Shown piece after piece: positions 1 to 8,531 of a stretch of DNA of 25,764 bases. Position numbers and translations under genes: made by a program. The notes below the pieces were generated by a model. The model saw only the letters and a program-made list of their open reading frames with translations. It did not search any database and was not told the origin of the DNA. This DNA comes from a virus. Position 1 is the stretch's first letter. The number at the start of each line of letters is the position of its first letter. Location: the UHGV virus genome UHGV-0116607, one strand, 5' to 3'.

Positions 1-55
1 GTTTCCTGGCATCCTTCCACTCTACACAAACAGCCCCCGTTTTTTCGGAGGTGAT

Positions 56-373
56 ATGGCTAAACGTATGCAAGATAAAGAAAGCATTGCCGGAGTGTCA
101 TGGCTGATAGTCCTTGCTCTGTCATGCTGGGGCGGCCTGGTCCGATACCTTATTGACGTTAAGCAGAACAAAGCCGCCTGGAGCTGGGTCAATGCGCTGG
201 CGCAAATTGCAGTGTCCGGCTTTACCGGTCTTATTGGTGGCCTAATCAGCGTTGAAAGCGGGCTTAGCCTTTACATGATCCTGGTTACTTCTGGTATCAG
301 CGGGGCGATGGGGTCCGTGGCACTGACGTACTTCTGGGAACGACTGACGGGGATGAAGAATGCAAACCAGTGA
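56..373 (+). CDS. Holin (class I-like, three predicted transmembrane segments)
   Basis: 105 aa; GGAGG ribosome-binding site 5-9 nt upstream of ATG; three hydrophobic stretches; N-terminus MAKRM has two in-frame Met separated by Lys-Arg (dual-start-like); sits immediately upstream of and overlaps the endolysin gene. Confidence 0.6.
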   Translation: MAKRMQDKESIAGVSWLIVLALSCWGGLVRYLIDVKQNKAAWSWVNALAQIAVSGFTGLIGGLISVESGLSLYMILVTSGISGAMGSVALTYFWERLTGMKNANQ

Positions 374-800
374 TAAAGGCATTGCCCTGATCAAGCAGTT
401 CGAAGGCTGCAAACTCACCGCCTACCAGGACAGCGTCGGTGTATGGACGATCGGCTATGGCTGGACTCATCCTGTAGACGGGAAACCAATCCGCGCAGGT
501 ATGACGATTAAGCAGGAGACTGCTGAGCGCCTGCTGAAGACCGGACTGGTCAGCTACGAAAGCGATGTGTCCCGCCTGGTAAAAGTTGGCCTGACTCAGG
601 GGCAATTCGATGCCCTGGTATCGTTCACGTACAACCTCGGCGCCCGGTCACTGTCGACATCTACACTGCTGCGAAAACTCAATGCAGGTGATTATGCTGG
701 CGCTGCCGATGAGTTCCTGCGCTGGAATAAAGCTGGCGGTAAAGTCCTGAACGGCCTGACCCGTCGGCGGGAGGCAGAGCGCGCTCTGTTCCTGTCGTGA
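360..800 (+). CDS. Endolysin, T4-type lysozyme (glycoside hydrolase family 24)
   Basis: 146 aa; N-terminal motif FEGCKLTAYQDSVGVWTIGYG with Glu/Asp/Thr spaced as in the T4 lysozyme catalytic triad (E-x8-D-x5-T); start overlaps the holin 3' end. Confidence 0.85.
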   Translation: MQTSDKGIALIKQFEGCKLTAYQDSVGVWTIGYGWTHPVDGKPIRAGMTIKQETAERLLKTGLVSYESDVSRLVKVGLTQGQFDALVSFTYNLGARSLSTSTLLRKLNAGDYAGAADEFLRWNKAGGKVLNGLTRRREAERALFLS

Positions 801-1183
801 TTACCGCGCTGCTAAGGCGTTACTGGCTGCAACTGATTGTGGTGGCGTTAATCGGCGTGCTGGCGCTCCTCGTGAACCACTACCGCGACAACGCCATTAC
901 CTACAAAGACCAGCGCGACAAGGCGACGGTCAGGGCAGACACATCGGAGGCGATCACCAGAAACGTGATCACCACGATGAACCTCATCCGTGACATCTCA
1001 CAGGCTACCCAGAATGCAAAGAACGAACTGGCCAAAAAAGGCGAGACACGCATTGTCTACATCAGGCAGGCGCTTGAAGGCGATCCGTGTGCTAACCAGC
1101 TTGTTCCTGCTGCCGCTGCTGACAGCCTGCGGGAATACCAAAACAGTTTACGTTCCGGCCCCGGTGGTGCCGATAAGCGCTGA
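797..1183 (+). CDS. Rz-like inner-membrane spanin (i-spanin)
   Basis: 128 aa; GTG start overlapping the endolysin stop (GTGA); N-terminal transmembrane helix (LQLIVVALIGVLALLV) followed by a charged, helical periplasmic region; position directly after the endolysin. Confidence 0.6.
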   Translation: MITALLRRYWLQLIVVALIGVLALLVNHYRDNAITYKDQRDKATVRADTSEAITRNVITTMNLIRDISQATQNAKNELAKKGETRIVYIRQALEGDPCANQLVPAAAADSLREYQNSLRSGPGGADKR

Positions 1184-1337
1184 CCTGACAGCTGACACGC
1201 CGATCCCCGGAATGACGGTTCCGTTCACGTGGCAGGCAAGTCTGGAGTTAAACGCTCAGCTCTACACGGCGCTGGGGCAGTGCAATCTGGATAAGGCAGC
1301 AATCAGGAAAATCGAATCATCAAGAGCCTCGCAATAG
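1074..1337 (+). CDS. Rz1-like outer-membrane lipoprotein spanin (o-spanin), +1 frame, overlapping the 3' end of the i-spanin gene
   Basis: Lipoprotein signal peptide with lipobox LLTAC|G (…KAIRVLTSLFLLPLLTACGNTK…), Pro-rich mature part and a C-terminal Cys. Start is uncertain: TTG at 1074 gives a canonical signal peptide; in-frame ATG codons at 1014 and 990 are alternatives. Confidence 0.5.
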   Translation: MKAIRVLTSLFLLPLLTACGNTKTVYVPAPVVPISADLTADTPIPGMTVPFTWQASLELNAQLYTALGQCNLDKAAIRKIESSRASQ

Positions 1338-1474: not shown

Positions 1475-2206
1475 ATGAAAGTTATCAAGTATTGGAAAGT
1501 TCAGCTTCTGCAGCTTTCTCAGCCTTCCGGCAAGCTTCCCGGCATTATCAACGCCCACAATCTGGTCGAAAGCCTGTTGTTTGAGGGGTACTCGAAAGAT
1601 AAACCGAAAATTAACCTCGGTTCCGGAGTAAATATTGAGTTGTTTACAGCGCCCGATTCGCTGGAAACCCGTATCTTTCGTAACCACCTCGTTGACAGTG
1701 TGCGTTGCTTCCCGGTGTTTGAATATGATGATGAAACTGACGGGACTCAGGAAGAGCAGACTAAGCCACCCTCACGCGAGGCCATGATTGAATATATCAA
1801 GCAGGCCATTGGGGAAGGCTATCAGCCTAAAATCTGCCATGAGCTCATTAGCAATCCTGATCTGCTTTGGCAGTTGCATGACGAGGCGGTCGATTATGAA
1901 TATCGCGCTTGTTGGCGCTGGTACCAAGAAGGCCATGGTTTTCATGAGACTTTTAGCGTCCCTGAGAAAATCCACGATCATTCCTGCGTTAACTGTTTTT
2001 CCGATAAAGGCCCATGCCTTGGTGACTGCCACGTTTCCGACGTTAATAAGGCTCGCAGCTCCTCCTTCGAAGACGTAGTGAATCCGGTAATCAAATGGCT
2101 TAACGAAAACGCCAACCCTCATACATCAGTGAGCATCGACGCAACCAGTGCTCAGCTGCTTACTGGTGAAATCGGCATTCACACGGAAGAGTTCATTAAG
2201 GACTGA
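1475..2206 (+). CDS. Hypothetical protein, acidic, Cys/His-rich C-terminal motif (putative moron / accessory gene)
   Basis: 243 aa from ATG with AAGGA ribosome-binding site; lower GC than neighbours; C-x2-C-x6-C-x3-C-H cluster (HDHSCVNCFSDKGPCLGDCH); lies between the lysis cassette terminator and terS; no family recognised by eye. Confidence 0.55.
   Translation: MKVIKYWKVQLLQLSQPSGKLPGIINAHNLVESLLFEGYSKDKPKINLGSGVNIELFTAPDSLETRIFRNHLVDSVRCFPVFEYDDETDGTQEEQTKPPSREAMIEYIKQAIGEGYQPKICHELISNPDLLWQLHDEAVDYEYRACWRWYQEGHGFHETFSVPEKIHDHSCVNCFSDKGPCLGDCHVSDVNKARSSSFEDVVNPVIKWLNENANPHTSVSIDATSAQLLTGEIGIHTEEFIKD

Positions 2207-6908: not shown

Positions 6909-8531
<1,623 letters not shown>

Follow-up and report, generated by a model that had tools for sequence, protein, structure and literature searches.

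Conserved in-frame double start in a LydA-family phage holin gene, with a putative role in lysis timing

Comparative evidence from sequence strongly favours a functional dual start in the holin gene that lies at the beginning of the window, by which we mean the whole stretch of viral DNA analysed here (25,764 nucleotides of UHGV virus genome UHGV-0116607). A preliminary description of this DNA had recognised a dual-start-like motif of the lambdoid type in this gene, and the dual start itself has gained in weight from the comparison of homologues, in which the two ATG codons remain in frame at each of three spacings, a basic extension lies between them, and the second methionine, Met5, is never lost. 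The lambdoid attribution has fared less well, in that the protein is not a member of the lambda S family. By analogy with S107 and S105 of phage lambda, we consider it moderately probable that initiation at the first methionine (Met1) yields a 105-residue antiholin and initiation at Met5 a 101-residue holin.

Dual-start holins are a textbook means of tuning lysis timing in lambdoid phages, and the conserved double start probably represents a genuine, if unremarkable, device of this kind. On comparative evidence, it extends the dual-start device to a holin family whose namesake, LydA of phage P1, has a separate antiholin, and it leaves the general picture of phage lysis unchanged. The least ordinary aspects are an initiation region of the lambda type that is apparently common to holins with no detectable protein similarity, and a long distance between the Shine-Dalgarno (SD) sequence and the second ATG in the branch to which the window belongs. 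A search of the accessible literature yielded no report or test of a dual start for the PF16083/LydA family of the window holin.

Start region of the holin gene

The holin open reading frame (ORF; positions 56–373, plus strand) encodes 105 amino acids, and its translation opens MAKRMQDKESIAG. The 5′ end reads ATG GCT AAA CGT ATG CAA GAT AAA, corresponding to MAKRMQDK, and direct reading of the window places the first ATG codon (ATG1) at positions 56–58 and the second (ATG2) at 68–70, in the same frame on the plus strand. Both the octapeptide and the pair of in-frame methionine codons (starting at 56 and 68) had been noted before, but with two details that need adjustment: the octapeptide, which had been assigned to positions 56–75, ends at position 79, and the spacer consists of the three residues Ala-Lys-Arg, not of Lys-Arg alone.

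Immediately 5′ to ATG1, and abutting it, is the 9-nt SD sequence GGAGGTGAT (47–55, plus strand; read from the sequence), which is complementary over its 9 nt to the 3′ end of 16S rRNA (E. coli 16S), and which is kept in all type-A relatives. In the window, the GGAGG core is separated from ATG1 by 4 nt and from ATG2 by 16 nt, and no second SD sequence is present between ATG1 and ATG2 of the holin gene. The Met1 codon (56–58, plus strand) would begin the 105-residue product, the putative antiholin. The codons for Ala2-Lys3-Arg4 (59–67, plus strand) specify a basic extension with a net charge of +2 that is confined to this long form, and the Met5 codon (68–70, plus strand) would begin the 101-residue product (MQDKES), the putative active holin, the short-form tail of which carries a net charge of −1. 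Upstream of ATG1, the 18 codons that lie within the window contain no in-frame ATG, GTG or TTG. Of the 42 ORFs in the window that open with ATG and reach 100 amino acids, only one, that of the holin, has a second methionine at residues 3–6 with Lys or Arg in between.

Family assignment, topology and role in lysis

The earlier identification of the gene as a holin holds up well, and is now supported by matches to Pfam and PHROG families, by the position of the gene at the head of a holin–endolysin–Rz/Rz1 cassette, and by the amber mutation 13-am43 in an orthologue from phage L with 85% identity. The match to Pfam PF16083 (Phage_holin_3_3, the P1 LydA family) scores 76.2 bits (cutoff 28.4; E = 2e-21) and covers positions 1–78 of the 78-position profile, and the match to phrog_785, annotated as ‘holin’, has E = 1e-38. 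Features of the functional class are likewise present, i.e., small size, transmembrane domains (TMDs), a charged C-terminus, and adjoining genes for endolysin and spanins. The nearest named relatives are the gp13 proteins of the P22-like Salmonella phages ST64T, L, ST160 and PS3, which are 84–85% identical to the window holin over the full length. In phage L, the lysis-defective amber allele 13-am43 is a nonsense mutation at Gln50 of gp13, the 85% identical orthologue (PMC8022706). This allele constitutes the best available genetic evidence for a lysis role of the gp13/window holin family, and is indirect for the window gene.

Hydropathy analysis of the window holin reveals three hydrophobic segments at approximately residues 11–29, 41–66 and 68–94, and an AlphaFold2 model computed with 25 homologues has helices at residues 2–36, 44–67 and 72–98 (mean pLDDT 69). 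In the charge map, a net positive charge is seen in loop 1, and the C-terminal tail ERLTGMKNANQ is positive as well; because of these charges the positive-inside rule predicts an N-out, C-in topology.

Membership of the lambda S family was considered and ruled out. The window holin has no match to PF05106 (the lambda S family) at E <= 0.01, and no NCBIfam model matches it; TIGR01594, which matches lambda S at 127 bits, leaves the window holin unmatched. A BLASTP comparison of the window holin with lambda S returns E = 0.14, and hhalign assigns a probability of 0.2% to the alignment of the 25-homologue profile with lambda S.

The lysis cassette occupies the first 1.34 kb of the window. The holin gene (56–373, plus strand; PF16083/LydA family by Pfam, phrog_785) is followed by a gene for an endolysin of the phage lysozyme type (360–800, plus strand; PF00959 with E = 1e-50, phrog_7), the start of which overlaps the holin stop, and by a gene for an Rz-like inner-membrane i-spanin (797–1183, plus strand; phrog_214 with E = 2.5e-35). 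An Rz1/LysC-like outer-membrane spanin is encoded in the +1 frame (990–1337, plus strand; PF23793 LysC with E = 4e-14, phrog_456), with a lipobox LTAC at 1119–1130. The Rz1/LysC-like ORF begins inside Rz and runs 154 nt beyond the Rz stop, and the spanin pair is accordingly of the overlapped rather than the embedded kind.

Conservation of the two start codons

Homologue DNA was collected from bacterial genomes and viral contigs, and each start region was read from the upstream stop codon. The first scan of viral contigs gave near-identical loci only, and the diversity stems from two further scans with distant queries; the homologous loci represent 53 unique leader sequences of at least eight leader types. 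Two in-frame ATG codons are found in 205 of the 207 homologous loci with readable upstream DNA. The spacing between the starts amounts to 2, 3 or 4 codons, and the frame is always kept. The N-terminus is MKM in a Serratia-like lineage, MRM in Xenorhabdus and a related clade, MKRM in Erwinia, Tatumella and others, and MAKRM in Enterobacter, Klebsiella, Salmonella and the window. Except for one locus with a charge-neutral MAER, the extension has a net charge of +1 or +2 throughout, and the short-form tail carries −1 or 0 in all homologues.

The second methionine is retained in every one of the approximately 207 loci, and none of the 118 full-length protein matches lacks it. The residues beside it vary, with Gln, His, Asn or Pro at position 6, and variable residues also at positions 7–10. 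The first ATG is absent only in the distant relatives L008 and L019, and in P1 LydA. Loss of Met1 in a few relatives and of Met5 in none is what would be expected if the downstream start is essential, as for a holin, and the upstream start dispensable, as for a regulator.

A single start at Met1, which would give only the 105-residue protein and make Met5 a conserved residue of the N-terminal tail, is in our view unlikely. Initiation at this codon is well provided for by the strong 9-nt SD sequence that abuts ATG1 with a core spacing of 4 nt, while ATG2 is 16–20 nt away and lacks an SD sequence of its own, and phage records such as that of ST64T annotate the 105-residue form. Against this, Met5 is invariant among neighbours that vary, and those relatives that lack ATG1 (L008, L019 and P1 LydA) begin exactly at the Met5 position. 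Furthermore, a tail with a net charge of +1 in addition to a free amino terminus would be a poor substrate for the predicted N-out insertion.

It is improbable to a similar extent that both starts are used to make functionally equivalent products, with the duplication ensuring robust initiation and no antiholin being formed. Such equivalence is compatible with the one locus that has the MAER extension, and the sequences hold no proof of antagonism between the two forms. The extension nevertheless includes at least one basic residue across every spacing variant, with a net charge of +1 or +2 everywhere except at a single locus, and this kept charge is hard to explain unless it has a charge-dependent role; the same rule of an extra positive charge defines the experimentally proven antiholins of lambda and phage 21 (PMC9636201; PMC6116005). 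Lastly, a single start at Met5, giving 101 residues and leaving the upstream ATG as a non-functional part of the leader, is very unlikely, for while many RefSeq-type and other NCBI orthologue entries with start-region DNA identical to that of the window start at the second methionine, and P1 LydA starts at the aligned position, the SD sequence is positioned to serve ATG1 in all leader types, and ATG1 is always in frame 6, 9 or 12 nt upstream with Lys or Arg kept in the codons between, where an untranslated spacer would keep neither frame nor charge.

The double start, which we favour as the origin of a putative antiholin and holin, is a feature of an enterobacterial prophage clade and not of all PF16083 proteins, as judged from N-termini as called, because no more than 7 of 113 full-length proteins have the motif among the PF16083 cluster representatives (<50% identity), the called N-termini of which depend on the gene caller. 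Many of the distant PF16083 representatives open MP[DE]KDP, similar to the MPEKHD of lambda S105.

Database records annotate the same start region in two ways, either as a protein of 104–105 residues from the first ATG or as one of 101 residues from the second (P0032 versus P0049, and P0010 versus P0038; L214–L217, positions 289–303). The conflict in start annotation exists even for one Pseudocitrobacter genome, and no record gives both products.

A predicted hairpin over the Shine-Dalgarno sequence

In the window, the SD core is predicted to be buried in a stem-loop at positions 33–52 (plus strand), analogous to the sdi structure of lambda, which is the minimum-free-energy hairpin at −7.4 kcal/mol and is composed of a 5′ arm GCCCCCG (33–39), a loop UUUUUU (40–45) and a 3′ arm CGGAGGU (46–52). 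For each of the leader types, the structure predicted to have the lowest energy is an SD-occluding hairpin, with values from −7 to −20 kcal/mol. The arms are CACCCCG/CGGAGGUG in the close relatives of the window (−10.3 kcal/mol), UUCCCGAU/AUCGGAGG in Klebsiella-type leaders, CCCC/GGGG in several lineages, and CACCCCA/UGGGGUG in Xenorhabdus. Loop and upstream flank differ freely from leader to leader in the set of 53 unique sequences, whereas the non-coding 5′ arm does not change within a type. From one leader type to another, two pairs change in a compensatory manner, from CCG/CGG to CGC/GCG.

Statistical controls on single sequences are less telling. When the bases upstream of the SD sequence were shuffled, 617 of 1000 shuffles paired the window SD equally well or better, and the result is not significant for the window or for most lineages. 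This test has little power, since even the proven sdi of lambda is equalled or surpassed by 54 of 1000 shuffles. As a control within the window, the SD sequence is partly paired in 11 of 22 other genes. Folding of window positions 1–120 is no more stable than that of shuffled sequences (z = +0.74), and no Rfam family matches at the holin start. Taken together, the predicted SD-occluding hairpin is supported by the comparison between lineages, and the controls indicate that pairing of the SD is common by composition. A second hairpin, at positions 54–69, in which ATG1 would pair with the Arg4/Met5 codons, was rejected, being weak and missing in lineages of the MKM and MRM kinds.

The 5′ arm of the window itself, GCCCCCG, differs from GCACCCCG, which is present in nearly all other type-A leaders among the 53 unique sequences; in L105 the arm is ACACCCCG. 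Loss of one A in the window 5′ arm changes the predicted hairpin energy from about −10.3 to −7.4 kcal/mol, and could be either a real variant that alters start choice or a sequencing error.

Comparison with lambda S

Holins of the dual-start type include lambda S, P22 gp13 and phage 21 S. As for the window holin, lambda S has two in-frame methionines with a basic residue between them, and three TMDs in an N-out, C-in arrangement (S105; PMC6116005), which is predicted in the window holin. The tail of the short form is acidic in both (MQDKES in the window and MPEKHD in lambda), a hairpin formed by a C-run and a G-run, which in the window is a prediction, lies just upstream over the SD, and the gene is the first in a late cassette of the order holin–endolysin–Rz/Rz1. 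The extension is different, with the four residues MAKR and a net charge of +2 in the window, and the two residues MK and a net charge of +1 in lambda. ATG2 follows ATG1 by 12 nt in the window and by 6 nt in lambda, and the distance from the SD core to ATG2 is 16 nt and 12 nt, respectively. At the protein level, there is no detectable similarity between the window holin and lambda S.

In lambda, the upstream sdi stem-loop sets the ratio of S105 to S107, and a weaker stem leads to more S107 and later lysis. S105 starts at Met3 and S107 at Met1, and TMD1 of S107 is prevented from entering the membrane by the additional Lys and the free amino group of this form (PMC6116005; PMC9636201). S107 pairs with S105 and delays triggering until loss of the membrane potential allows TMD1 to insert, whereupon S107 joins in hole formation (PMC6116005; PMC9636201).

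The experimentally defined lambda leader is TCCCC-TTATT-GGGGG-TAAGAC-ATG-AAG-ATG-CCA-GAA-AAA. One leader from the homologue set (L104) is identical to the lambda S sdi/dual-start region at 32 of 41 positions (~78%; lambda L022 positions 265–305 versus L104 positions 577–617), and the leaders of L009 and L126 are similarly close to lambda. None of 300 shuffles reaches the scores of L104, L009 or L126, and all three loci encode holins of the PF16083/LydA family to which the window holin belongs. For the leader of the window itself, the similarity to that of lambda is not significant. Because the leaders are ~78% identical, yet the proteins are without detectable similarity, the alignment suggests that the initiation region, comprising the hairpin, SD and starts, has been shared or exchanged between lambda S and LydA-family holins.

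A more far-reaching proposal is that the region consisting of hairpin, SD and ATG-basic-ATG is a regulatory cassette common to, or exchanged between, holin families without detectable protein homology, and that it has been rebuilt in the branch of the window such that the holin start is now 16–20 nt from the sole SD. We regard this proposal in its entirety as tentative and rather doubtful. If it is true, and Met5 is the main holin start, start choice would take place through hairpin-gated initiation without the usual use of an SD; the 1-nt loss in the 5′ arm, which is unique to the window, would then be expected to shift the holin:antiholin ratio.

Comparison with other lysis systems

P1 LydA belongs to the same Pfam family as the window holin, and the two proteins are 27% identical over 102 residues (BLASTP E = 4e-7). 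Unlike the window holin, P1 LydA has a single GTG start, which aligns with Met5 of the window holin, and no basic extension. The P1 antiholin is LydB, a separate soluble protein with its own gene, lydB, whereas the window encodes no lydB-like gene after the holin, the endolysin being encoded there instead. P1 LydA has furthermore been described as a class II holin with two TMDs, while three helices are predicted in the window holin. As is predicted for the window, the leader of P1 lydA has a hairpin over the SD, in this case of the type CCTCC...GGAGG.

This P1 lydA hairpin (L213, approximately positions 884–925, minus strand) has 7 bp, CCUCCUG/UAGGAGG, and covers the SD despite the single GTG start and the separate antiholin. 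Since a single-start gene such as P1 lydA also has an SD hairpin, occlusion of the SD may be a general throttle on holin translation that is not specific to dual starts.

The gp13 proteins of ST64T, L, ST160 and PS3 have the same MAKRM start and leader type as the window holin, but are encoded in podovirus genomes, whereas the window has a late region of the myovirus type with a tail sheath gene. Their records each contain a single coding sequence, and we found neither a dual-start annotation nor a dual-start experiment for them. Similar to what is proposed for the window, phage 21 S21 has a dual start (S21-71 antiholin and S21-68 pinholin) in which the longer product carries an extra basic residue. 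S21 is, however, a class II pinholin with two TMDs that operates with a SAR endolysin, while the window holin has three predicted TMDs and a PF00959 lysozyme as partner.

Proposed mechanism

Based on the arrangement of the start region and the analogy with lambda, we infer the use of both starts, inhibition by the long form, and control of the ratio between the two forms by the hairpin. Initiation at ATG1 (position 56) would give the 105-residue form with Met-Ala-Lys-Arg at its N-terminus, and initiation at ATG2 (position 68) the 101-residue form beginning MQDKES, with the stem-loop that buries the SD setting the share of initiation at each codon. In the short form, the net-negative tail would cross the membrane and allow TMD1 to insert N-out, giving the active, hole-forming holin. 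In the long form, the two extra basic side chains would hold the N-terminus in the cytoplasm for as long as the membrane is energised, and the long form would thereby be an antiholin, which postpones triggering by pairing with the short form. Upon collapse of the proton-motive force, the long form would be expected to flip and add to hole formation. All the sequence features called for by the lambda mechanism are present in the window gene, with the larger extension MAKR (+2). The charge asymmetry required by the lambda mechanism (PMC6116005; PMC9636201) is found in the homologues, where an extension of net charge +1 or +2 is set against a short-form tail of −1 or 0.

Efficient initiation at Met5 is not to be taken for granted in the branch of the window, because ATG2 is 16–20 nt from the SD core, which is beyond the usual SD range, and there is no second SD; the largest value, 20 nt from the GGAGG core to ATG2, is found in Klebsiella-type leaders. 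One possibility is that Met5 is reached through initiation on the A-rich, unstructured stretch that follows the hairpin when the SD is closed.

If the dual start is confirmed, the homologues would provide natural variants in which the effects of charge and start spacing on the lysis clock can be tested. These variants comprise extensions of 2, 3 and 4 residues, distances of 10 to 20 nt from the SD to the second start, and different SD hairpins.

Genomic surroundings of the holin gene

The same holin and leader are found with different types of endolysin. The partner in the window is the PF00959 protein (360–800), in L214–L217 it is a Peptidase_M15_4 protein (593–906), and in Hafnia phage Meifeng (H32) the same holin is located beside an annotated glycoside hydrolase family 19 protein. 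Because one holin and leader occur with different endolysin types, the holin module is one that travels independently of the endolysin.

In close relatives of the window, a tRNA gene, either Arg-tct or Asn-gtt, precedes the holin gene (L028, positions 341–520; L001, 1249–1323; L023, 1164–1238). In L028, the sole relative scanned for terminators, strong terminator-like hairpins, two in number, lie on either side of the tRNA gene, the one nearer to the holin being ~80 nt before its start, and the window begins just after the position of that hairpin. At the other end of the lysis cassette, just after Rz1, the region at approximately 1323–1400 contains GCGGGGCTTTTTT and resembles an annotated terminator region of phage HK639 (H15, H16).

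The rest of the window is a late region of the myovirus type, with genes for the small and large terminase subunits, portal, tail sheath and tape measure. A 243-residue ORF (1475–2206, plus strand; phrog_16206, of unknown function) separates the lysis cassette from the gene for the small terminase subunit. Within the block of head genes, a 539-residue protein (6912–8531, plus strand; phrog_6216, of unknown function) has weaker matches to MutT/NUDIX hydrolases in its N-terminal part and to head maturation protease families in the middle of the protein, which is an unusual combination.
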